Below are positions 622 through 13,052 of a stretch of DNA of 13,052 bases, piece after piece (position 1 is the stretch's first letter; the number at the start of each line of letters is the position of its first letter). The stretch is taken from contig WJMJ01000140.1 of assembly GCA_014728035.1 (NCBI GenBank), forward strand, positions 1 to 13,052, in the 5' to 3' direction. The stretch comes from Promethearchaeota archaeon (GTDB lineage: Archaea > Asgardarchaeota > Thorarchaeia > Thorarchaeales > Thorarchaeaceae). The notes under the pieces were generated by a model that was not told where the DNA came from, searched no databases, and saw nothing but the letters and a program-made list of their open reading frames with translations. The position numbers and the translations under genes were made by a program.

Positions 622-786
622 TATTCCTCTCCTTGAATGTCGCTGGAGATTGTTAGACTTCACACCTTATGTCTCTTTCGCTTGATAGTCTCGGAACTCT
701 CTCGCCCCCGTAACGGTCCGTTTGAACGGATAGACCAGATGAAAAAATCTCTTGGGGATAAGAATATTGTATCGATGTGATTGACC

Positions 787-1128
787 ATGTCTAGAATTCC
801 AACCAATAGATCGCTCAACTCGAATAGAACACGAATCGGATACGCAAGACAGAGGCCTGAGAGCAAGAGTGAAGATGAACCTGAGAGGAAATACTTTGAG
901 CAAAGGTCCATAACGACAGACCCCAATCCCGAAAACTTGAGCAGAGAAGAAATCCTGGAATTGGTCAAGTTCTGTCCTCTCTGTGGGGTTGAGTGGCCTG
1001 AGGGAGGGTATGTCTGTTCGAACAAAGACTGCGGAGCGAAGGTGCGAATCGAACCCAAGGCCCATAACTGGTTCCTGTTCTACCCGAAACATAACGGATG
1101 GGTGTTTCTAGAACCAAAGCATAGATAA
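787..1128 (+). CDS. Small zinc-ribbon protein
   Basis: CPLC-x10-CSNKDC four-Cys motif after a charged, probably disordered N-terminus. ATG at 787 is preferred over TTG at 781. Confidence 0.7.
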   Translation: MSRIPTNRSLNSNRTRIGYARQRPESKSEDEPERKYFEQRSITTDPNPENLSREEILELVKFCPLCGVEWPEGGYVCSNKDCGAKVRIEPKAHNWFLFYPKHNGWVFLEPKHR

Positions 1129-1171
1129 AGCGAATACAGAAGAAGTGTATTTATTGTACTGCTTTATCCCA

Positions 1172-1180
1172 TTTTATATA
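1172..1180 (+). promoter_or_regulatory. Putative archaeal TATA box for a leaderless transcript
   Basis: TTTTATATA ends about 22 nt upstream of ATG 1203, and no SD is visible. Confidence 0.4.
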
Positions 1181-1202
1181 GTTATGACAATCTCGTTCTT
1201 TG

Positions 1203-2093
1203 ATGCAAATGAATCAATATAATTACAAAAATGCGATTTATGATTTATTCATACAACTGTATCACAGTCAGCTACTTGATTGTGAATTAGTCGCGATTGA
1301 GCTAGAGCTATTCAAAAAGAATGATTTGCGTTCTGTCAAATTCTTCGAGTATTCCAGAATTGAATATGATGATGAATTCTTACTAATAATCAAATACATC
1401 AGATCGTTCTTGTTTGATTTTTCTGAGATAGATCAACGAAAGAAACGTGATTTAGTTGATAAAATACTCTCAAAAGAGTCAGAACAACTAGATAATATGC
1501 TAATCAGTTTTCTCAACACACTGCAAATACAACAGTATCTTACTGAAAAAGCTCAAGAACTACTGAAGTCAAACACTGATATCCGTCTTACAAGACTTGT
1601 CATCTTAGATTTTATTGCATTCATAATACGATATCAAAGAGTTATTTCAATCGAGTCAGATGATGACGTTGTGAATTTTGCATGCTCCGCTATTGAGCTT
1701 GCTTGCTCTGTTGTTAGATCTATTCAGAAGTACTATATTTATTCAGAATTGGCACAGTTCAAGATAGAACAAGATATACGAATGAGATCAGAACTTGACA
1801 AGATTCAGTGTGTTGAACAACATACTGAGATTGTGAAAAGATTACATAAGCTGTCTGAAATAAAGACAAAAGAAGACTTCCTAACATACGAAATCTGGGC
1901 AGCATTGATGTATTTCATTTATTATCTAGAACAAATACACTATGAAGAACATCTACAAATGCTAGAACGTAAAAAAACTGAATTCATGTTCCTTTTTGAG
2001 AGTGTTACGAAGCAGTTAGATAAGATGATCTCTAAACAAAAAGAACTAGATGAGTTGAATTTAGACGAAGACGAAGGGACATATAGAATCTAG
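1203..2093 (+). CDS. Hypothetical alpha-helical protein (about 296 aa)
   Basis: Long ORF in very AT-rich DNA, rich in E/K/L/I/Y, with an acidic tail. No family recognised. Confidence 0.75.
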   Translation: MQMNQYNYKNAIYDLFIQLYHSQLLDCELVAIELELFKKNDLRSVKFFEYSRIEYDDEFLLIIKYIRSFLFDFSEIDQRKKRDLVDKILSKESEQLDNMLISFLNTLQIQQYLTEKAQELLKSNTDIRLTRLVILDFIAFIIRYQRVISIESDDDVVNFACSAIELACSVVRSIQKYYIYSELAQFKIEQDIRMRSELDKIQCVEQHTEIVKRLHKLSEIKTKEDFLTYEIWAALMYFIYYLEQIHYEEHLQMLERKKTEFMFLFESVTKQLDKMISKQKELDELNLDEDEGTYRI

Positions 2094-2155
2094 CTCTGTC
2101 AGTTGTCAAATAAAAGGTGAACCCGGACATCCAGGGTTGGTGTTACCATATGCGA

Positions 2156-2175
2156 AATAGACTATCTAGTCTATT
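2156..2175. repeat. Perfect inverted repeat AATAGACTA-TC-TAGTCTATT
   Basis: 9-bp perfect arms with a 2-nt spacer, in an intergenic region. Confidence 0.75.
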
Positions 2176-2344
2176 GAAACTTGGTGAGAACTCGAAGTTC
2201 CTATTCAGATTCATTATCCATTTTCAATCCCTCAATCAGCTAGTATCAATGGTCAATAGTGATTATTGGTTTTAAGGTAGTACTCAGACAGAAAAATCCA
2301 GAAACATTCATACATCCACCAATAGATACTACCTACTAGTAATT

Positions 2345-2350
2345 GAGGTG
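2345..2350 (+). promoter_or_regulatory. Shine-Dalgarno site GAGGTG
   Basis: Lies 8 nt upstream of ATG 2359 and matches the canonical archaeal SD. Confidence 0.6.
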
Positions 2351-2358
2351 TGTATAAT

Positions 2359-2789
2359 ATGATTCCTGACGGAACTCCAGCTCACGAGGATATCATCATT
2401 GATAAAGAACAGATGCCTAGCTTTTCGGATGAATTCCAACGCATTCCGGACTTTCTAGGAGATAAAAAAGATTCAATAGCCCAATACAGAGGCCCAAACA
2501 ATATTCACATCCTAGAGTATGAAACTTATTGGAGTGTTCACTGGGATTGGGGTGACCCACGGACTATCCCTGGTGCTATTGTCCACATTTTCGCGGATGA
2601 TCCCGATGTTGGGTTGAGTCTGCTCATTGCAGCAGGTGCAGCTAAAGCAACCTATGATAAAACGAAATCCCCCCACGAGCACTACTGGTATTCGGTGCTG
2701 TGGCCTTTGGTACCTATAATCTTACAAAGGGCATCAGAGAACTGTTCTCCGTTCTTGCAGAATGGCTAACATCATTGATGAACACATAA
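2359..2789 (+). CDS. Small archaeal membrane-associated protein, apparently frameshifted at a C6 run (2669-2674)
   Basis: The N-terminal motif QYRG..IH..EY...W.VH.D..DP...HI..D.P resembles small uncharacterised archaeal proteins (from memory). The unshifted frame ends at 2769. The -1 frame after the C run reads PRALLVFGAVAFGTYNLTKGIRELFSVLAEWLTSLMNT* (stop 2787-2789), a more convincing transmembrane plus amphipathic C-terminus. Confidence 0.65.
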
Positions 2790-2916
2790 GGACCTATATC
2801 GCCTTGAGCTTACCCCGCATGAATATGTCCTCGAAGAAGAAGGCACTTGGGTCTTGATGACCTCGACCAAGTTGGGTCGTTCCAGTTCTAGTAGGTACTC
2901 CCGTGTTGCCAAAAGG

Positions 2917-3666
2917 TCACTCGGGTTCATCTGTTTCTGTATCAAACAGATCAAGAACCAATCGATAATTCAACTCGATACTGATCTCACGAACATCATC
3001 TTCATCAAAGAAATTCTGTGACATGTTTGGAAAGCGGCATAGAGCAACAGCAATACATATCTCCACCAGTCTATCAAAGAACCGCTCGCATTCAAGTTGT
3101 GACATCATCCTTCGGTGGCGAAGCAAATCGGTGAAATGTCCACTTGTTTTCAATACACTCTCTCCAGGATGAACGTAATCAGATAATTTTCCATATAGCT
3201 TAGCAATCCCTTCATTCAACTTAGTTGGAAAACCACATTCTGAATTCAGCGCACGTCCACGTATTCTATTCTCTTTTAGTGCGGTTATCTGTTCTTCCAG
3301 ACTCCTCTCTCTATGTGTTATGTCAATATAGTATGCCTCAACAAGGGACTCTAAGATGAACCTCATCTCACGTGCTGCAGGTTCAAACATTCCAGAGAGA
3401 ATAGTATAGATAGTCCACCATACATACACTTGTAGGTCTACATAACGCGAGAAGAATATGGTATCACTCCCTCTGGTATCTTGTTCATACTTTCCGACAA
3501 GAGACATTGGTATCATATAGAGTTTCAATCGCCTTCGCCATCTCTCTAACACTTCCGGATTCTTTCTAAGCTTCTCCGAATCTATTTCAAAGATTTCAAA
3601 TATTCCTCCTCTTGACTGTCTGGGTTCTATCACCTCTTCATCTTCTCCTAGTTTTATAACATCCAA
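2917..3666 (-). CDS. Hypothetical protein with DUF5677/HEPN-like helical motifs
   Basis: AAREMRFILES and LYGKLSDYVHP match the 'R..lE ... Y..LS..vH' pattern of DUF5677-type, HEPN-related proteins. Overlaps the upstream gene by 13 nt. Confidence 0.6.
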   Translation of the reverse strand: MDVIKLGEDEEVIEPRQSRGGIFEIFEIDSEKLRKNPEVLERWRRRLKLYMIPMSLVGKYEQDTRGSDTIFFSRYVDLQVYVWWTIYTILSGMFEPAAREMRFILESLVEAYYIDITHRERSLEEQITALKENRIRGRALNSECGFPTKLNEGIAKLYGKLSDYVHPGESVLKTSGHFTDLLRHRRMMSQLECERFFDRLVEICIAVALCRFPNMSQNFFDEDDVREISIELNYRLVLDLFDTETDEPE

Positions 3667-4226
3667 AAGATTTCGCCTGTGGGAAAATTCATGGGTTCGA
3701 TTGCAGATGATCTAAATTTCAACTTGTAGGTCTTTTCTAGTGTTTCCATGATATGAATAGATAATGTGACCTCTGAAGGTACCTGTTTGAAGTATTGATT
3801 GACAAAGAAACAACGCCAGATTCGTTTAGATTTTTCCAACATTTTGAAAGAGGTAATTGGTGCTGTATGTCCCTTTGCTATAAGCCTTAATTCTCTCTTT
3901 CCATCAAATATTGCGACATCTTCAATTCTGATCACTCGTTCTGTATTGTTACACAGTTTCAGTTCAATGAAGTGAATAGCCATATTGTGTTGTGCCTCAA
4001 CAGTGTGGATTGCATCTCGTACTATCACATCCAAGTCTTTCTTTTTCTCATATGCTAAAGATTCATCTCGAATGCAAATGCAGACTTGGATGACATTAGC
4101 TGATATCCCTAGCACAAGAAGAACTAGTAGAACAGTGGGATTATCGGGAATGAGAAGACCTATGACCACAAGAGTAGATGTGACTACCAACACTCCGCCT
4201 ATCCATATCCATTTTCGCGAAAACAC
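3654..4226 (-). CDS. Membrane-anchored protein: two N-terminal TM helices plus a beta-rich (possibly Ig-like) domain
   Basis: Two hydrophobic segments in aa 6-50 and a C-terminal strand pattern (FIELKLCNNTERVIRIEDVAI). GAGGG lies upstream of the GTG start. Confidence 0.7.
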   Translation of the reverse strand: MFSRKWIWIGGVLVVTSTLVVIGLLIPDNPTVLLVLLVLGISANVIQVCICIRDESLAYEKKKDLDVIVRDAIHTVEAQHNMAIHFIELKLCNNTERVIRIEDVAIFDGKRELRLIAKGHTAPITSFKMLEKSKRIWRCFFVNQYFKQVPSEVTLSIHIMETLEKTYKLKFRSSAIEPMNFPTGEIFWML

Positions 4227-4324
4227 GTATTTTCCCTCAATTATTCATGATTCTTTGATTTTATGTACTTTTTCACATTTGATGGACCCTAGCACAAAGG
4301 TTTATCCTCTTTCACTCAAAGCCT

Positions 4325-5632
4325 TTGGTGAGGAAATACTCTCATTGTCTAGCAGGAGTTCTTGAATCTGAATTGCATGGAGTAAAACGTAAAGATACCG
4401 AGGGAACATCGTGGGGGTTTTATTTTGTACTATTTTTGATCTTCATATTTGTATTTACCCTATCTTCTTTCCTGTTCTCTCCAATATTGGGACAATTACA
4501 AAACGTATCAACTGATTCATCCACTTTCGCCTTTGTTTTCATTTTCTTTCAGTTTATGTTAATGATTCTGCTCGTTGCCATACCCTCCTTTACAACTGCT
4601 ACAATTCATTATCTATTTCATAAGAGTTCTGAAGATTCAGAAGACCAGAGGATTCCAACAGTGAAGGAGCAAAGACAGGTTCTTTGGAATCTTGTTGATA
4701 GAGACTCAGTTGAGGCCTTAGATGAATACTGGGAGATATTCATCTCACTCATGGCGGTGTTTTTTGTCGCTATTGCCTTGATTGATGTGACCATCCAAGG
4801 GATTGCTGATTGGATTCAAATTCTGGTGACGGTGGTCTTCTGGGTATCCTACAAGGTTGGAAAGGCAAGACAGAGTATAGACCTTAGAATCATGACGATA
4901 GGAGCAGCAGTACAATTCCTTGTGCTGATAAGTTCTCTTCTCCTGATGTTCGGCTTGATTCAAGATGTTGTCATATTCTGGTTGAATACTGATGCCTACC
5001 TTGATCCCATTACAAACTTTCCCTCCCTCTATTGGTACTTCCGTGTGCTTGGAGCCTTCTTGATAGGTGCTTTCGGAGTTGGAGTCAGCAAGTATGTTGG
5101 AGTAGAAATCGGAATTCGCTGTTATCAGACCATCAAACTTGACACAACCTCCGATAAGAAAGAGGAATTGGATGTATTTGGTCTTCATCTGGTAAAGGGA
5201 GCTCTCCCATCCTATCTGTTCTATGGACTGCTATGGTTCATAGCATTCATTATTCCATTTACTGTGGCAACCGGAATGACTGATAATGCGTTTGCTATCT
5301 TTTTAGGTACCGCAATCCTGAGCCTTCTTCTGGTATTTGGATGGCTAGCTAAGATCTGGTATGCTAATAGAGTATTACAAGGAATCACGTTTTCAGGATT
5401 CTGGATTGTATTGATTCGATCCATCAAGTTTTCACAAAAGATTCTTAGCGGTTTCTTTCTGATATTGATTGGTCCAATTACGTTCTATGCTTTACCCCTC
5501 CTGATCTTCAGTTATGCGGTACAGATGGGTAGTATCGGAACCGCCATATTGTCTGGCATGGGGTGTGGACTTGTTCTCCTGACTGTTCATCTACTCTCTT
5601 TTCTACGTCCCACTAAAAAACATAGACGGTAG
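4325..5632 (+). CDS. Polytopic integral membrane protein of unknown function
   Basis: 435 aa with roughly ten hydrophobic segments. No transporter signature recognised; start codon uncertain. Confidence 0.8.
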   Translation: MVRKYSHCLAGVLESELHGVKRKDTEGTSWGFYFVLFLIFIFVFTLSSFLFSPILGQLQNVSTDSSTFAFVFIFFQFMLMILLVAIPSFTTATIHYLFHKSSEDSEDQRIPTVKEQRQVLWNLVDRDSVEALDEYWEIFISLMAVFFVAIALIDVTIQGIADWIQILVTVVFWVSYKVGKARQSIDLRIMTIGAAVQFLVLISSLLLMFGLIQDVVIFWLNTDAYLDPITNFPSLYWYFRVLGAFLIGAFGVGVSKYVGVEIGIRCYQTIKLDTTSDKKEELDVFGLHLVKGALPSYLFYGLLWFIAFIIPFTVATGMTDNAFAIFLGTAILSLLLVFGWLAKIWYANRVLQGITFSGFWIVLIRSIKFSQKILSGFFLILIGPITFYALPLLIFSYAVQMGSIGTAILSGMGCGLVLLTVHLLSFLRPTKKHRR

Positions 5633-5687
5633 ATCTCTGAGAAGATATCACGCCTCAATTCTCTGTTTCTAGAAAACAATCAATCTC

Positions 5688-5834
5688 ATGATCACTGCAC
5701 TACAAGTATTAACTCATCGAACCATCGATTTACACCTGAAGCAAATTCTCGAAGAATTGAAATCCTTCAACTCTGAACGATATATCTTCATAGTCCAGTT
5801 AGGAACGCTAATCTTCCTGAGATCATGCAAGTGA
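5688..5834 (+). CDS. Possible small ORF (48 aa, MITALQVLTHRTIDLHLKQILEELKSFNSERYIFIVQLGTLIFLRSCK)
   Basis: Manual translation; contains an amphipathic-looking LKQILEELKSF. No SD seen, and it is too short to appear in the ORF track. Confidence 0.2.
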   Translation: MITALQVLTHRTIDLHLKQILEELKSFNSERYIFIVQLGTLIFLRSCK

Positions 5835-6073
5835 AAGTTCGCTGACAAATCATGGAGATACGCCTTTAGCCATGAGATAGAGTAACATCTAGTCTAAACA
5901 TATCCATCAAAAAATCTAAATTCATTACTCTCGTAATCTATCCAAAGATGTAGGATGGATCAGGAATTTCTGAACGTGTTCGTAGTGTATTTTCTAATAT
6001 ACATTCTATTCTCCAAGCGATCAAAGACAGTGGAACACAAGCAACCATTGCTGTAGCTGAGAAGGTTGGGGTT

Positions 6074-9000
6074 TTGATTGCAGATGTGATTCAAAATGCT
6101 CCTGAAACGGGTTATGTTGTTGATGGAGTTGATTTTCTATCTAATATTTCAGGAATAATTTCCTCTCTTCGTTCATTCAAAGAGGAGAGAGATATCAGAA
6201 AATCAACAAAGAAATCTCTTGAAGATAGTTTACAGAGTCAAGGTATTACCTTATCCACTTCTCAATGGGAACTTTTAGAGCCGCTGATACGATGGGATGA
6301 TCCAGTAGTTCAACAGATATTCTTGTCTGGTTCTTTTTCCGGAGGTGTTACAGTCTGGTTAAGTGGTGTAAATGAGGAGGATATATTCACAACTGAGCAA
6401 ATTCAAGCTATATCTTCGATATACCGTGATGTGTTGGTTCATCGTGTTGTAAATGATCCCGTGATTGTAAGCTTTCAAACATCTGAGAAGCTTCAAGAAC
6501 TTGAAGCTTCCATCAATAAAATTATCAAGATTCTGCTGAGTCGCAATCTGGAAAGTCAGGGTGATATCAAACAGGCTGAACTGATTGGGTTGAAGACCTT
6601 TCGTTCAGTAGTGTTAGAGAATGAAAATGATGAACCTGATCCATTTAGAGGTTTGAAGACTGGCACTCCTCGTATGATTGACTTTGATAATGGGTATGTC
6701 ATTGACCCCCCTTATCTCTCTGAAGTGATCCGAAAATTTGACCTTTATTCCGCACAGAAACCCTATGCGGATTTTCTACTTCTGGGTCCCACTGGATCTG
6801 GAAAGACTTGGGGTTCGCTCTCCATTGGCTATCATTTTATCAAAAATGATTGGGTTGTATTTCAAATTGACCTCGAAAATATTGTACGGTATAACCTAAC
6901 TCCTAATCTAATACCCTTTCTTTTGAAACAATCTCAACGGACTGTATTGTTTGTAGAAAATGTTCATCTATATGTGGATTATGCGCGGGAGTTGATTGAA
7001 CAGATTCGTATGAATACTATTCTTCTTCAAAACCCGCTACGAATTCTAGTGATAGGTAGAAGCTCTATTGAATCTGATAATGAACGAATTCAACCCTTGT
7101 CTGAGCTGTTTGATACTGAGACTATTCTCTTTCTAAAACCAAATCCTAATTTTGCGGAGACCTATCTGACTCGATTAAGACAAGAGTTTGAGATCCATGA
7201 GGATTTCAAGGCAATATCTCTTCTTGAGCAGAGTGGTTCTTTTGCAATCTACTGTGAAGTACTTAGAAGAATCATAGAGGAATCTCAGGGATGTGGACCT
7301 GAAGATTATGATCCATGGGAGGAAATCTCGAAATATTCACTCCAGCGAAGGCTGGTTGATGTCTATGCCACCGATAGAAGAAAAGGTGCTATCATTCTCT
7401 CTGCAATTTCTGCTTTCTCTCGAATTGAATCTCCCTTGTTGGAAGATTTCTTGTTAGAGTACTTGGGAGATGCATATCAAGATACTTTGGGAGTACTAAT
7501 TTCTCACCAACAGCTATGGGTTCATGAAGTTTCTGATGTATTCCTTCGTAGATTGGGACTTCCACATCCTCGTCTAGCTGAGAACCTGTTTGAGTGGGGT
7601 AGAGAAGTACTTGGTATGTACTTGAAGCAAAAAGACACTCCTATCGAAGAAACGATCTATTTCGATTATCTTGATTATCTTGAAACACTTGATTCTGCAC
7701 TAAGACAAGATGAAGACTGTGTCTATGTTCACCGAATAACTACTCATTTAGGACTTGTTGAAGGTACGAGTGTGGTCGAGAAGATATTTCAATATCTTCT
7801 TCAGAAAATCGAAACCAGTACAGAGGAACTCTCTGACAGAGTGCGGACACTTACAGCTGGGTCGTTATACAATATTGGGAATTTTTACCGACAGCAAGAT
7901 GATTTCTGCAAAGCTATAATCGCATATACTTCAGCACTGCTTCTGCAAGATGATTTTGTACAAGCATGGAATAATCTTGGGGCTGTCTATCTACAGATGA
8001 AAGAGTATTCTTCAGCGACTGAGTGTCTTATACATGCAATTGAAGTAGATGATTCCCAATCATCCCCCTTTGCAAATCTATCCGCTGCTTATTTTAAACA
8101 GGAACTATCATGTCTTGGCTATATCACTGGTAAGATTGCTATCGAATTGGATCCAAACAATGCAACTGGTTGGTTCAATCTTGCTCGCTCTTGTCAGTTG
8201 AAGAAACGATACGAGGAAGCAATGGAATATCTCCATATAGCGATGGATCTTCATGAAACCATTTCTGTTCATTTGTATGAAATGGAATTGGAACTTCTTC
8301 ACGGGTTGAAAGAATATCGAAGAGCTTTACAGCGAGCAAAAGAAATTGGCAAATTAGGACATGAAACAGCTGTAATTTTTCTTCGTATTGGTGTCAGCAT
8401 GCTAAGACTGGAATGTTTTGACTCATCTGTAAAATGGCTAAAGATTGCATTGAAGAAGGATTCCGGTATCTATGAAGCATGGCTTTTCCTTGCGGAAGCT
8501 GAAACAAAACGGAATAATTGGGATTTAGCTGTGAAATACACCGAAAAAGCATTAGACATCTATCCTGACAGAGATATTGGTTTAGGATTCATGCTGACCA
8601 TATTTCTTCGTAATAAACAGAATCATTCTGATTTGTTGAAGCGATATTTAAGGGCAAAACCTACTGATATCAGTTTAGCAACACAGATAATTCGTTATCT
8701 ACTACATCTCAACTATACTTCCGATGCAGAACATATTGTGGACTGGTTGCTACAATCTCAAATTCAAGAGCAACTTGCACTTTTGGAGATATGTCACGAG
8801 TTCCTAAAGAAGAATTCATTAGAACCAGCTAACGATATTCTCCAAACATTTGAAAAAATACCTGAACCACCCATTGAGTTTTACGAAGCGAAGGCTGTTT
8901 TCATGTTCATGAGAAAAGAGTATGAAGCCTCCATAGAATTTGCAGAGAGAGTGTTATCTGACAACAGGGATAATTTACACTCCTTACTAGCTTGTGGATT

Positions 9001-9538
9001 ATCTCATCTCAGGTTGAAGCGTTTCAATGAAGGTATATCCTTGCTTGAAGAATCTCTGGTTCTAGACCCAGAATATATCCCTGCCATTCATGCTCTTGGA
9101 GATGCGTACTATTCCCAGAAAGAATGGAAAAAGGCTGAGGTCGAATACCAGAAACTTACAAAATTGAAACCCAAACATCCTGGTTATTGGATTAACTACG
9201 GAAGTAGTCTTGCTAGACAGGGAATGCTGAAGGTAGCAAAGAGGATGTTCAATAGGGCTCGTGGATTAGTACCAAATGACGGGAGATCTTGGCTCAATTT
9301 TGGTCGGTCTTATGAGGATTTAGGCAATCTTGCACAAGCTGAATCATGTGTTCGAAAGGCCCATAGCCTGAAACCTAATAATGTCACGATATTGAGAATA
9401 CTATACACTATCCTGAAGAAACGTGGGAAACATCGTCATGCAGACACAATTGCCGCTCAGATTGATGAACTTGTTGCCGAGGGTGTTGCAGAATATTATG
9501 AAGAAACAGATGGAGATGAATCTACCAATTGGGCATAG
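6074..9538 (+). CDS. STAND-like P-loop NTPase with a C-terminal TPR array
   Basis: Walker A LLLGPTGSGKT, Walker B-like VLFVENVH, sensor-like RILVIGRS and a PHPRLAE motif. Many TPR repeats follow (AWNNLGAVY, GWFNLARS, AIHALGDAYY, YWINYGSSL, SWLNFGRSY). The frame stays open upstream to 5954, so the true start is probably earlier. Confidence 0.88.
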   Translation: MIADVIQNAPETGYVVDGVDFLSNISGIISSLRSFKEERDIRKSTKKSLEDSLQSQGITLSTSQWELLEPLIRWDDPVVQQIFLSGSFSGGVTVWLSGVNEEDIFTTEQIQAISSIYRDVLVHRVVNDPVIVSFQTSEKLQELEASINKIIKILLSRNLESQGDIKQAELIGLKTFRSVVLENENDEPDPFRGLKTGTPRMIDFDNGYVIDPPYLSEVIRKFDLYSAQKPYADFLLLGPTGSGKTWGSLSIGYHFIKNDWVVFQIDLENIVRYNLTPNLIPFLLKQSQRTVLFVENVHLYVDYARELIEQIRMNTILLQNPLRILVIGRSSIESDNERIQPLSELFDTETILFLKPNPNFAETYLTRLRQEFEIHEDFKAISLLEQSGSFAIYCEVLRRIIEESQGCGPEDYDPWEEISKYSLQRRLVDVYATDRRKGAIILSAISAFSRIESPLLEDFLLEYLGDAYQDTLGVLISHQQLWVHEVSDVFLRRLGLPHPRLAENLFEWGREVLGMYLKQKDTPIEETIYFDYLDYLETLDSALRQDEDCVYVHRITTHLGLVEGTSVVEKIFQYLLQKIETSTEELSDRVRTLTAGSLYNIGNFYRQQDDFCKAIIAYTSALLLQDDFVQAWNNLGAVYLQMKEYSSATECLIHAIEVDDSQSSPFANLSAAYFKQELSCLGYITGKIAIELDPNNATGWFNLARSCQLKKRYEEAMEYLHIAMDLHETISVHLYEMELELLHGLKEYRRALQRAKEIGKLGHETAVIFLRIGVSMLRLECFDSSVKWLKIALKKDSGIYEAWLFLAEAETKRNNWDLAVKYTEKALDIYPDRDIGLGFMLTIFLRNKQNHSDLLKRYLRAKPTDISLATQIIRYLLHLNYTSDAEHIVDWLLQSQIQEQLALLEICHEFLKKNSLEPANDILQTFEKIPEPPIEFYEAKAVFMFMRKEYEASIEFAERVLSDNRDNLHSLLACGLSHLRLKRFNEGISLLEESLVLDPEYIPAIHALGDAYYSQKEWKKAEVEYQKLTKLKPKHPGYWINYGSSLARQGMLKVAKRMFNRARGLVPNDGRSWLNFGRSYEDLGNLAQAESCVRKAHSLKPNNVTILRILYTILKKRGKHRHADTIAAQIDELVAEGVAEYYEETDGDESTNWA

Positions 9539-9567
9539 ATATCAAAGTTGGTGTTTCATGAAAGCAT

Positions 9568-10622
9568 TCAGAAGGGGTAGTTGACCCTCTCAAGTAGATG
9601 CAATACATCTCCCATCTATGTAATCAATTCGACTATGGTTCTATCAACATGACCTCTCTTTGTTTCGTCAAGTTTCTCGGATTGAATAACTTTGTTGATT
9701 CAATCCATCAGAAGTTTTCCAACTCGTTTGATATGGGTTCTTTCACTCTTCAGTTCTCTTCCCAATTTGGTAACTGCCTGTTCTTTTACCCAATTAAGAA
9801 GGCTACCTATTTTGGTTCCTACTACATGCAAAGAAAGAGGTTCATCGTCTGAAGAATGCATCTCCTCTAATAACATGACAGATGTGAATTGACGTACTAT
9901 TGTCCGTAGGTCTTCCATAATCTGCATAAGATGGAGACCCTCGGTACTCCTCTCATGTTTCGAAATTGAGTCATTGAACATTGTCAGAAGTGTAGGATCT
10001 ATTGTTTCAAGCTTTGCCAATACTAATTCCCTTGTAGCACTTAATAGATTGGAAACACCCATCTCGAATTTCAATGCGATATATTGTTGCAGCGCAAAGT
10101 TATGAAGTCTAGAGCGTATTGCTGAAAGAATCCCCTTTGCTTTTAATTTCGTAAAGACAGCATGAACTGCCATTGGAGCAATAACTGAATCACTATAGGT
10201 TCTTTTGTATTTGATTTTGATATGCTTTGTCAGAGTCGTCTTCCTAATCACTTCAAGTTGCCCTACTGGGAATCTGATTTCAAACCATACTGGTGTGGGA
10301 TTTGCGGCTCGACGAATTTGCTCCTGGTATACATCATCACGAATATCAGAAAAAAATGGCATATTGGGGGCAGCTGCTAATTCGATTTGCCGGTAATGTG
10401 GTGCAAGAAATCGCTTGTATTTTTCTCTAGCTTCTATATCTTCGATTTTCATATAACCCTCCAATTCAAGATGTATCCAAACGAGTTCTTCATCAGAGAG
10501 TTCTAACAAATCGATTACTTTTTTGCCTTTAGTAGTAATGGTTCTAGATACTTTCCGGGCTTTTCACATCCTTCTATAATTTCCTCTCTTATATCCAAAG
10601 CCATCATTCGTTTTTTGCTCAT
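9568..10622 (-). pseudogene. Interrupted AbiTii-domain protein gene
   Basis: ATG at 10622 follows GAGGGG. Adding one A to the A6 run (10519-10524) joins ...LEPLLLKAKK to VIDLLELSDEELVWIHLELEGY...PHYRQI, matching the AbiTii pattern 'LL.KA...L....W...EL.GY...P.YR'. The frame continues past TGA (9700-9702) and TAG (9616-9618) as LMD*INKVIQSEKLDETKRGHVDRTIVELIT*MGDVLHLLERVNYPF to TGA 9568. Confidence 0.7.
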
Positions 10623-10681
10623 TTCATCCCCTCTATTACAATTGTATGATTTGTGTATCAAGGTGGGCCCGAACAGACAGA

Positions 10682-10842
10682 TGGCGAACATCAGTGCATA
10701 AAACAAAGATGTATCTGCTGTCGAACCCGACATTCCTGAGACCTGTGGGGTTATGTAGCTTTCGAGACGGACATAATAACTTGGCAGTAAGATATATTAG
10801 GTGAGACGCCCTTTTAATTGATTGGCGAACAATAGTGCATAA
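10682..10842 (+). repeat. 20-bp direct repeat TGGCGAACA(TC/AT)AGTGCATAA at 10682-10701 and 10823-10842
   Basis: 18/20 identity, 141 bp apart. The second copy contains the GTG start of the 10835 ORF. Confidence 0.8.
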
Positions 10843-11632
10843 TGAGACCTATCAAGAGGTCTCGTGTGAGAGTAAGGTCTCTGAGTTCATTCAGAGTCAT
10901 CTTCCTCTCTCAGTTGAGACCTTATCGGGTGTACTCGAACGAGTACGAGCTGCATGTGTAGACGGAATCCTCGACCCATTGTTCCGTGTCACCGTTGAGG
11001 GTGGCGAAATCGGGTCGATAGAACATCACCACTTCATCGAGGACTTTTCCTATTCCTTTTTGCTCTGGCTTATGGAACAACACGGAGTCTGTAGTTGTGG
11101 ATCCACAGACCTATCCCTGCATGGAACCGATGAATGGATAGAGTATGTTACATGCGAGGCCTGTGGGAATCAACTTCACAGAGGCCGATTAGCATGGACC
11201 TCTCTGGCTGAGCAGCAACGGGTAGAACGGGCTTTAGCGAAGTCGGGTTTTTCACCAGAGCTTATCCTGACTCCACCAGTCAAGACACAGAACGACCTCT
11301 GTTTCCTGTTCATGCGATTGTTCGAGGTAGCGTTAGAGCATCAGGTGTATGACGAGCGTTTTCAGGCAAGTTACCTTGCTCCTCTCTATTCTCGTGAACA
11401 TATTCGATTCGTGGAGAGAAATATCAAACGAAGTCTGTTTGGGTTACTAGGAGATGGACTGGCGACCTGTCCCTGTGGAGGATTCGATTTCAGGGTACAA
11501 CCGTTACTGATAACCTGCCACAGGTGTGGGTTGAAGCTGGCCTATGAGAACTACTACAGGATGGAGTGGAGGGCTCCGCATGACCTCTTAGACCATGAGA
11601 ACGGCCGTGGGAGGGTCTTGAGTGACCATTGA
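10835..11632 (+). CDS. Protein with two TFIIB-like zinc ribbons (internal duplication)
   Basis: CSCGSTDLSL...YVTCEACGNQL and CPCGGFDFRV...LITCHRCGLKL, each preceded by a similar helix (HHFIEDFSYSFLLWL / IRFVERNIKRSLFGL). Overlaps the TBP gene by 11 nt. Confidence 0.75.
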   Translation: MHNETYQEVSCESKVSEFIQSHLPLSVETLSGVLERVRAACVDGILDPLFRVTVEGGEIGSIEHHHFIEDFSYSFLLWLMEQHGVCSCGSTDLSLHGTDEWIEYVTCEACGNQLHRGRLAWTSLAEQQRVERALAKSGFSPELILTPPVKTQNDLCFLFMRLFEVALEHQVYDERFQASYLAPLYSREHIRFVERNIKRSLFGLLGDGLATCPCGGFDFRVQPLLITCHRCGLKLAYENYYRMEWRAPHDLLDHENGRGRVLSDH

Positions 11633-12170
11633 ATACAGGTTGGTCAATGCTGTCTGGTCTGGAGATTTCGGAAAACGGATCGATCTGGACGAGATAGCAG
11701 CGTCATTCCCATTCAGAGCTACCTTCGAGGTTGAAAAGTTTCCAGGGATGAGATGGAAAGACAAGGAGGGCAAGAACATTCTCCATGTCTTTGCATCGGG
11801 AAAGTTCATCGTGACCTTGTATATCGAGCCCGAACAGGTCAGGTTTATGCTTCAGGACTTTATCGAGTGCTACAACTCGCTCTATTTCTTCCGCAAGGAG
11901 TCACACCTCTCCATGCCTGATGTCGAGCTGCAGAACTTGGTGGCAACGGGTAAGATTGAGAAGAGTCTGAATCTGGAACTCCTATCCCTAGAGTTAGAGA
12001 ACACTGTTTACGAACCAGAACAGTATCCGGGATTGGTGTGGCGGATTCGGAGATACAATGTCACAGTTATTCTGTTCGGGTCTGGTGCCTTCACCATCAC
12101 GGGGGCAGAGTCAGAGTCCATTATCAAACAGACACTAGAGCTGATTGATGAAGTGGGGGGTTCCTCATGA
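11622..12170 (+). CDS. tbp: TATA-box-binding protein, divergent paralogue
   Basis: Two TBP repeats: LVNAVWSG...IDLDEIA...FEVEKFPGMRW...VFASGKFIVT and LQNLVATG...LNLELLS...YEPEQYPGLVWR...LFGSGAFTITGA. GGAGGG lies upstream of the GTG start. Confidence 0.92.
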   Translation: MTIEYRLVNAVWSGDFGKRIDLDEIAASFPFRATFEVEKFPGMRWKDKEGKNILHVFASGKFIVTLYIEPEQVRFMLQDFIECYNSLYFFRKESHLSMPDVELQNLVATGKIEKSLNLELLSLELENTVYEPEQYPGLVWRIRRYNVTVILFGSGAFTITGAESESIIKQTLELIDEVGGSS

Positions 12171-12874
12171 CCTATGAACGGAACAAGCAGTACAAGGCCG
12201 ACCTTCTTCCGGTCATCGAACAGCACCTATCCCTGATTCGAGAGAGCGGTCTGTTTGATGACCATCCTGACAGGATAACCTATGATAGACTGGAACAATG
12301 TGCCTTTGAACTATTGAAGCGACACGACTTTGGAGTACGGATGCTTCCTTCTTGTGCTAATGCTTCAGTGATACTAATCTACGAATGTATTGTCCGATAC
12401 ACATCCATAAAATTTCGACCGAAGAAGAAGGACCTCGAAGAGATTTTTCGGAGACGGATTCCAAACAAAGGATACATCAACCATTTTGGACGAGTACCAA
12501 AAATCTTACTCAGCGACATCACGTCATGTGAATACAATGAGAATGATTCGATTCGTGAGTTGATCATACTCCTCATCGATTCACTAAACAAGATAACTGA
12601 ACAAAGATTCAATGAGTACCTACGGAAAATTGAGAATCTTGCTCTGACTATCGGCACATTGACCCCTTCAAGTGAGTTTAGAACCTGTAGACTTGCTGGT
12701 GCGTGTGTATATCTTGCACACCGTTACCGAATAGGGAAGGAGCGTATCTGGCTCACTCAGAATATCCTCTCATACTTGTTTGGAAAAAAATCTACTCTAA
12801 CCGAAGAGGTGCGATTCATCGAAGAACATGTGGACATCTTTGCACTGCGAAACAGACTCGATGATAGGAACTGA
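12167..12874 (+). CDS. TFIIB/TFB-like cyclin-fold protein lacking the N-terminal zinc ribbon
   Basis: The C-terminal LAGACVYLAHR...LTQNILSYLFGKKSTLTEEVRFIEE resembles the second TFB cyclin repeat (AAA.lY.A....TQ..iA...g....Ti). A weaker first repeat is ANASVILIYECIVR...KKKDLEEIF. ATGA overlap with tbp. Confidence 0.65.
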   Translation: MTYERNKQYKADLLPVIEQHLSLIRESGLFDDHPDRITYDRLEQCAFELLKRHDFGVRMLPSCANASVILIYECIVRYTSIKFRPKKKDLEEIFRRRIPNKGYINHFGRVPKILLSDITSCEYNENDSIRELIILLIDSLNKITEQRFNEYLRKIENLALTIGTLTPSSEFRTCRLAGACVYLAHRYRIGKERIWLTQNILSYLFGKKSTLTEEVRFIEEHVDIFALRNRLDDRN

Positions 12875-12895: not shown

Positions 12896-12930
12896 TTGGT
12901 ATTACGGGATAGTATACCAATCTCTTTTCT
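12896..12930 (+). terminator. Putative terminator: hairpin plus pyrimidine tract
   Basis: TTGGTAT (12896-12902) pairs with ATACCAA (12914-12920), followed by TCTCTTTTCT, starting about 20 nt after the operon's last stop codon. Confidence 0.4.
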
Positions 12931-12942
12931 ATCTAAAACAGC

Positions 12943-12982
12943 TACTAGATGTCATTCCAAATGAAATCCGTAACATCTAGTA
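12943..12982. repeat. Perfect 10-bp inverted repeat TACTAGATGT-N20-ACATCTAGTA
   Basis: Seen directly in the intergenic sequence. Confidence 0.7.
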
Positions 12983-13052
12983 CTTTCTATTCACCAAGAA
13001 TCCATTAGATATGTACGAATTTACAATACGATTAACAATTGTTAAATAACAC

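Follow-up and report, generated by a model that had tools for sequence, protein, structure and literature searches.

Why would an archaeon that already encodes a housekeeping TATA-binding protein (TBP) carry a second, strongly divergent TBP gene, overlapped on both sides by genes for proteins of no known family? The question is raised by a three-gene locus of a Thorarchaeota archaeon. The window analysed here is an entire contig (C113, 13,052 nt) from an assembly of 4.33 Mb in 173 contigs, 97.9% complete and 8.5% contaminated; the closest housekeeping TBPs come from sources with Thorarchaeota names, consistent with the host. The explanation we consider best, and hold tentatively at somewhat less than even confidence, is that the locus encodes an accessory, probably horizontally acquired, TBP-based transcription module. 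Its three genes are as follows.

10835-11632, + strand: gene 1 (P0001), GTG start, 265 residues, zinc-ribbon protein and founder of a small orphan family
11622-12170, + strand: gene 2 (P0002), GTG start, 182 residues, divergent two-repeat TBP paralogue without an acidic tail
12167-12874, + strand: gene 3 (P0003), ATG start, 235 residues, all-helical orphan, possibly with a cyclin-like fold

An operon-like unit of three genes under selection

Genes 1 and 2 overlap by 11 nt, and genes 2 and 3 by 4 nt (ATGA). The original prediction, made from the letters of the window, had described three co-oriented, translationally coupled genes in an operon, and both the coordinates and the recurrence of overlapping junctions at other loci agree with it. 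Two Logan metagenome contigs (SRR10018916/7) carry a ribbon gene followed by a TBP gene, with an overlap of 11 nt in L020 and overlaps of 4 nt in L053. The layout is operon-like and suggests a single transcription unit with coupled translation. A GGAGG motif (11610-11614) lies 7 nt 5′ of the TBP start, and a run of six G (12155-12160) lies 6 nt 5′ of the gene 3 start; no motif of either type is found upstream of the gene 1 start. The ratio of non-synonymous to synonymous substitution rates (dN/dS) against relatives is 0.165 for gene 1 (against L020), 0.29-0.35 for the TBP and 0.154 for gene 3, with synonymous sites near saturation. Because the ratio is 0.15-0.35 for all three open reading frames (ORFs), we count them as real genes, which by this substitution pattern are under purifying selection, rather than as chance ORFs. 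Rfam and tRNA scans of the window were empty.

Gene 2 encodes a TBP paralogue distinct from the housekeeping copy

P0002 matches the Pfam TBP family PF00352 over two stretches (E-value 1.8e-33; 114.6 bits against a cut-off of 22.9). When the genome was scanned, its two repeats scored 71.7 and 45.7 bits and those of the housekeeping TBP, located on contig C115, 112 and 100 bits. P0002 also falls below every NCBIfam TBP cut-off (PRK00394 models), its best score being 113.5 bits against at least 181. The presence of the C115 gene, together with six full-length TFB genes elsewhere in the genome, bears out the earlier proposal that this TBP is an extra, divergent copy and not the only one.

Across 300 genomes of the phylum, the nearest TBPs are 35-39% identical to P0002. 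In the phylogeny, P0002 and the copies on C44 (a second contig of the same genome), L053 and L020 form a long-branched clade of their own (support 100/99, stem of 1.86 substitutions per site). The TFB-binding C-terminal stirrup YEPE is invariant in the alignment of this clade; of the four intercalating Phe, three remain and one is replaced by Tyr in all members. The roles given to these saddle and stirrup residues follow yeast and archaeal TBP structures. Taken by its sequence, P0002 is a bona fide TBP, yet a paralogue distinct from the housekeeping copy.

Divergent TBP paralogues also occur in other Asgard genomes, and in none of the four inspected (L025, L030, L031, L044) is there an overlapping upstream zinc-ribbon gene. 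A further genus of this family has two complete TBP genes in tandem (L022, G196:C26; L023, G117:C2), and TBP duplication is thus recurrent in the family. A further long-branched paralogue (L029, G145:C439) lies directly 3′ of a 311-residue ORF (1405-2085 and 108-1040, respectively) that may, by the look of its sequence, encode a tyrosine recombinase.

Gene 1 encodes a two-ribbon protein of a small orphan family

P0001 comprises five parts, in this order from its N-terminus.

Residues 1-85: N-terminal domain, poorly modelled
Ribbon 1: zinc ligands C86/C88/C107/C110
Middle domain: helical
Ribbon 2: zinc ligands C212/C214/C228/C231
MEWRA motif

Both ribbons are of the CxC...CxxC type. The family has four members: P0001 itself, P0006 from L020 (72% identical), a 5′-cut ORF of L053 (26%) and a pseudogene on contig C60. 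The zinc ligands are conserved in their alignment. The AlphaFold model of P0001 has a mean predicted local distance difference test score (pLDDT) of 56; ribbon 2 and the helix upstream of it (pLDDT 75-86) are the best-conserved and best-modelled part of the protein.

The original prediction had spoken of TFIIB-style ribbons, which is upheld weakly, and for ribbon 2 only. A profile built from the TFBs of the host genome was compared with P0001 using hhalign. The TFB B-ribbon and the beginning of the B-reader (EWRA) align in register to residues 208-247 with a score of 33.8, against a maximum of 24.8 in 120 column shuffles, a difference that a generic ribbon would fit too, as column shuffling removes the Cys pattern. 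The Pfam family Zn_Ribbon_TF (PF08271) matches P0001 at E=0.035; its 14.1 bits fall short of the cut-off of 29, and the match is confined to the latter half of ribbon 2. In P0006 and the L053 protein, the chain stops 4-5 residues past the conserved Trp, with no room for a B-reader loop or linker. Ribbon 2 may accordingly be either TFB-like, which its alignment makes possible, or generic.

Structural searches with P0001 (Foldseek against the PDB, VIA-align and the atlas) returned only generic ribbon or helical matches (E of about 1, Z at most 4.3, template modelling (TM) score at most 0.30). A search of the ESM Atlas was uninformative, and the family matched no PDB chain by sequence.

The conserved core is the ribbon-TBP pair

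The second copy of the module lies at the end of C44, a 209-kb contig. Its TBP is 87% identical to P0002 and its P0003 paralogue 55-56% identical to P0003, and the two are joined in one 427-residue frame. The joining is due to a run of seven G ahead of the ATGA (near 208470 of C44; near 1480-1490 of L004) where the window has six. It could reflect a genuine fusion, slippage that acts as a switch, or an error in the assembly. Between C113 and C44, dS is about 0.2 for the TBP and for codons 1-40 of gene 3 but saturated over the remainder of gene 3, suggestive of a gene-conversion tract over the TBP and the start of gene 3. That C44 and C113 are one locus from two binned strains was ruled out, the flanking HerA clusters being only 34% identical over 89 residues.

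A decayed pair is found on C60 (4161-5610; L052, L055), where a ribbon gene with two TGA and one TAG codons is followed by broken TBP repeats with further stops. The metagenome copies complete the set: the third gene of L053 encodes an unrelated 90-residue protein with a hydrophobic tail, and the L020 contig breaks off too early to show a third gene. As for synteny, no other occurrence of the trio was seen, and it is the zinc-ribbon and TBP pair that recurs. The conserved unit is this pair, with P0003 a lineage-specific addition, because the pair recurs in L020, L053 and, as a pseudogene, C60, and the P0003 family is confined to C113, C44 and a fragment on C82. The P0001 family was not found in 80 genomes of the archaeal family, and no relatives of P0001 or P0002 were found in IMG/VR or the JGI metagenomes.

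The C82 fragment (L019) comprises 63 residues that are 39-44% identical to the C-terminal part of P0003. It belongs to a 93-residue ORF (L019, G000:C82, 860-1141, − strand) between rpoB (1111-2580) and rpoA′ (1-669). This ORF opens with a 51-nt, 90%-identical duplicate of the rpoA′ 5′ end, and the fragment follows. It resembles a scar left where a P0003-family gene inserted into the 5′ end of the gene for RNA polymerase A′.

Proposed role of the module

The G+C content of gene 1 (0.50), gene 2 (0.48) and the C44 copy (0.47) departs from a genome mean of 0.395 (standard deviation 0.024 in 2-kb windows); 0.6% of the 2-kb genome windows reach 0.47 or more. The accessory or foreign look first noted at this locus is borne out by this composition, by the multiple copies with a pseudogene among them, by the failure to find the module in relatives and by its AbiTii and STAND neighbours. 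Because it is multi-copy, includes a pseudogene copy, is patchily distributed and has a foreign composition, the module is probably accessory, transferable and horizontally acquired. Neither an integrase nor terminal repeats were found, and the same holds for viral and plasmid genes.

In the mechanism that we propose, overlapping stop and start codons would cause a fast-evolving TBP paralogue to be made in fixed proportion with a dedicated zinc-ribbon protein. Since most saddle and stirrup residues are kept, P0002 would still sit on TATA-like DNA and could meet a TFB-type partner. P0001 would bind the TBP, as translation of the two is coupled at four loci, and its C-terminal, TFB-like ribbon would contact RNA polymerase, in view of the likeness of ribbon 2 to the B-ribbon, and either recruit or block it. 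In the host genome, the orphan helical P0003 would be an additional partner of the TBP, to judge from its place in the operon and from the fusion on C44. Together the proteins would control a small set of private promoters, the module's own included, rather than general transcription, and the result could be either activation of these promoters or interference with host initiation.

Several observations weigh against this proposal. The first TBP repeat has lost several consensus residues (VYRL to RWKD and TGAKS to TLYIE), and the decay of the C60 copy shows that the module is dispensable. The TBP-P0003 fusion hangs on one homopolymer G and may be an assembly error. As for the TFB-like character of ribbon 2, the shuffled control also allows a generic ribbon, other Pfam ribbon families score P0001 nearly as well as the TFIIB ribbon, and EWRA is not retained in L020 or L053, where RA is unconserved. 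Finally, neither P0001 nor P0003 matched a known family or solved fold.

A defence-like neighbourhood

The genes upstream of the module give weight to a different use of the same proteins, in which the TBP paralogue, together with its partner, would serve as a decoy or competitor and thereby stop or divert initiation, either during virus infection, in the manner of abortive infection, or for the benefit of a selfish element, in other words a jammer, defence or addiction module. We regard this as fairly unlikely. Two neighbours bear on it.

9700-10622, − strand: AbiTii-like gene (Pfam AbiTii 2e-6, PADLOC AbiTii 2.1e-8), divergently oriented neighbour, context only
6074-9538, + strand: STAND NTPase-TPR protein of 1154 residues (TPR families; nSTAND_NTPase5 2.2e-6), defence-island-like context

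An AbiTii gene also neighbours the L020 copy, where it is C-terminally truncated at the edge of a 9.5-kb indel; relative to L020, the gene in the window is split by a 1-nt frameshift in a T/A run near 10515-10525. The indel corresponds to window positions 735-10207, which have no counterpart in L020: there, 1-734 directly abuts 10208-11572. Within this segment are five ORFs that match no family, the gene for the STAND NTPase-TPR protein and the 3′ portion of the AbiTii gene. On the evidence of this alignment it is a variable island adjoining the module, and such a variable upstream region would suit a defence locus. The decayed C60 pair has a comparable setting, being followed 3′ by a surface-protein-like ORF and then by a Schlafen/AlbA_2 gene (6713-7963). 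The outlying G+C content, multiple copies, patchy distribution and fast-evolving TBP fit this reading as well, and host and viral factors that block archaeal initiation, TFS4 and RIP, offer a precedent (PMC5715097, PMC5123050).

However, the two AbiTii-bearing loci are closely related and so not independent, and the neighbours of L053 differ. Neither P0001 nor P0003 gave a meaningful match to the PADLOC defence models, the only one being P0003 to PDC-S05 with 14 bits over 21 residues, and the failure to find an integrase, terminal repeats or viral genes also speaks against this reading. If the module were a jammer or defence device, transcription-factor mimicry would join the archaeal defence and counter-defence repertoire.

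Gene 3 and the possibility of a split TFB

The original prediction saw in the product of gene 3 a ribbon-less, TFB-like protein with a cyclin fold. It is ribbon-less: P0003 has no CxxC pair, hence no TFB-type N-terminal ribbon. The other part of the claim did not gain support from profile comparisons. No Pfam family, including the TFB/TFIIB core PF00382, matched P0003, P0004 or their halves at E of 10 or below. An HMMER profile of the six host TFBs scored P0003 and P0004 no better than 500 shuffles of each, and the hhalign score of P0003 against the TFB profile (17.7) was inside the shuffle range (mean 14.2, maximum 24.1). No internal repeat gave a signal in P0003, and when the ORFs of the genome were ranked by the P0003 profile, no TFB appeared among the sub-threshold matches. 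A word-indexed search and an exhaustive HMMER search with a three-sequence profile, run on sets of 5.8 billion and 1.84 billion proteins, retrieved only the host genome's own copies; P0003 was likewise not found in 40 relatives, in phages (tblastn) or, by sequence, in the PDB.

Structure prediction gave hints of another kind. AlphaFold, from three sequences, modelled P0003 as an all-helical protein of 11 helices with a pLDDT of 46.6, and a Foldseek search with this model, meaningless at such low quality, found nothing. In the ESM Atlas, all family-bearing feature neighbours of P0003 are cyclins (0.92), with 154 of 256 features shared, whereas true family members typically share 170. For the stored ESMFold model (pLDDT 0.66), the closest structures are TFIIB-repeat (TM score 0.40) and cyclin clusters, at TM scores of 0.36-0.43. 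By eye, and only with two insertions of four residues, the C-terminal half of P0003 follows the A..A.Y.A ... TQ..I ... TE.VR pattern of TFB repeat 2, which is a lead and no test. A cyclin-like fold for P0003 is thus roughly an even call. The predicted complex of the TBP with P0003 scored 0.00, which is no verdict and was used neither for nor against binding.

These results bear on a second alternative, raised as a possibility in the original prediction, according to which the TBP gene parts the two halves of a TFB, one being the ribbon and reader at the C-terminus of P0001 and the other the helical P0003; with the TBP they would form a self-contained set that recruits host RNA polymerase to special promoters. 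The alignment of ribbon 2 and EWRA with TFB, the cyclin features and structural neighbours (the TFIIB repeat and cyclin-like archaeal clusters), an 11-helix count compatible with two five-helix repeats and the frame shared by the TBP and the P0003 paralogue on C44 are all in its favour. We nevertheless judge it unlikely: P0003 is indistinguishable from shuffles in both profile methods, lacks a detectable repeat, draws no TFB among its weak matches and shares fewer ESM features than true members. Furthermore, the third position of L053 is taken by the unrelated 90-residue protein, and P0006 and the L053 protein end too early for a B-reader loop or linker.

A bolder and quite unlikely version would make the locus a minimal initiation kit, a TFB dismantled around a private TBP into ribbon protein, TBP and cyclin core, with TBP and core fused in one copy. 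If it were true, promoter recognition and polymerase recruitment would be spread over three small, fast-evolving proteins that travel together between genomes.

A nearby DNA-end-processing cluster

In a third alternative, the module would be a dedicated regulator of a nearby DNA-end-processing cluster. The logic would be analogous to that of TFB3 in Sulfolobales, a shortened paralogue of TFB by which DNA-damage genes are activated in trans (PMC6101594, PMC7289017). The two copies whose downstream flank can be seen are each co-oriented with, and upstream of, a very divergent HerA-Mre11-Rad50 cluster, in a genome of 4.3 Mb with only seven HerA-type loci. On C44, a very divergent HerA-Mre11-Rad50 cluster (199500-206000) lies 1.7 kb downstream in the same orientation. 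At the window locus, the last 141 nt (12912-13052) are identical to the end of contig C78 (15027-14887), an assembler k-mer overlap; if the join is right, a co-oriented NurA-HerA-Mre11-Rad50 cluster (C78 1927-8593) follows about 6.3 kb downstream. The join, however, rests solely on this overlap, and the two arrangements may stem from one old segmental duplication, in which case they count once. Within 10 kb of the L053 copy there is no cluster of this kind, and a shared promoter motif was not found. We consider a cluster-specific regulator very unlikely.

That these are decaying, functionless TBP paralogues with chance neighbouring ORFs, as the C60 pseudogene pair and the tiny, lineage-restricted family might suggest, is hardly credible given the dN/dS of 0.15-0.35 at saturated dS, intact copies at three loci and the conservation of overlapping junctions and zinc ligands.

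Relation to known systems

Extra TBPs and TFBs diversified promoter choice in archaea, and later in eukaryotes with TRFs, Brf and Rrn7. Tk-TIP26 of Thermococcus (PDB 2CZR), about 26-30 kDa in size, is a zinc-finger protein that attaches to TBP and influences how TBP binds DNA. By analogy it could serve as a functional model for P0001, although the P0001 family matches no PDB chain by sequence.

Haloarchaea have multiple sets of TBP and TFB paralogues, in which alternative pairs give promoter specificity (PMC3261711, PMC7289017). The present genome resembles them in having an extra TBP beside the housekeeping one, several TFBs (six here) and a presumed promoter-specific use. It differs in that the partner, not recognisable as a TFB, is a novel zinc-ribbon protein whose translation is coupled to that of the TBP, and in that this TBP is far under the NCBIfam cut-offs, a G+C outlier and limited to one species-level lineage. 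Like TFB3, P0001 would be a ribbon-bearing, incomplete TFB-like factor beside canonical factors, and the module is also near DNA-end-processing genes. TFB3, however, is a demonstrable TFB homologue that is not encoded with a TBP, whereas P0001 resembles the B-ribbon only weakly.

Poxvirus VITF-3, an atypical TBP/TFIIB-like heterodimer (PMC12917281), likewise joins a very divergent TBP-like protein to a partner of its own for private use at a subset of promoters. In contrast to the module, VITF-3 acts with the RNA polymerase of the virus, and the partner in it has a TFIIB-like structure; no polymerase is encoded at the window locus, and P0003 has no TFIIB profile match. TFB is found in Asgard viruses and rudiviruses, and archaeal mobile elements carry TBP or TFB genes (PMC13700489). 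One such TBP, gp39 of Halorubrum virus HRTV-9, is 30.5% identical to P0002; unlike P0002, it has no zinc-ribbon neighbour, and the module has neither viral hallmark genes beside it nor relatives found in IMG/VR.

No description of a TBP gene coupled to a P0001-family protein was found in the literature, and none of the compared systems has one; an accessory TBP and zinc-ribbon module is thus apparently undescribed. If the favoured interpretation is true, an Asgard TBP paralogue tied so firmly to a novel zinc-ribbon protein would represent a previously unseen means of building or controlling the pre-initiation complex. With three proteins of fewer than 270 residues, the module is a small, tractable test case for how a TBP gains new partners.

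The region upstream of gene 1

The intergenic region upstream of gene 1 was also considered as a conserved RNA or other element, and this was ruled out: it is a recombination mosaic without noncoding constraint, since its 93-95% identity to L020 runs on into the first 70 codons of P0001 before falling to about 62%. Two candidate regulatory features were read from its sequence.

10682-10701 and 10823-10842, + strand: 20-nt direct repeat TGGCGAACAnnAGTGCATAA, two copies 141 nt apart, candidate operator
10792-10799, + strand: TATA-like box ATATATTA, about 39 nt 5′ of the gene 1 GTG, candidate operon promoter

No further copies of the repeat occur in the genome at up to two mismatches. The second copy spans the start codon of gene 1, and both copies are retained in L020, where the TATA-like box is identical.

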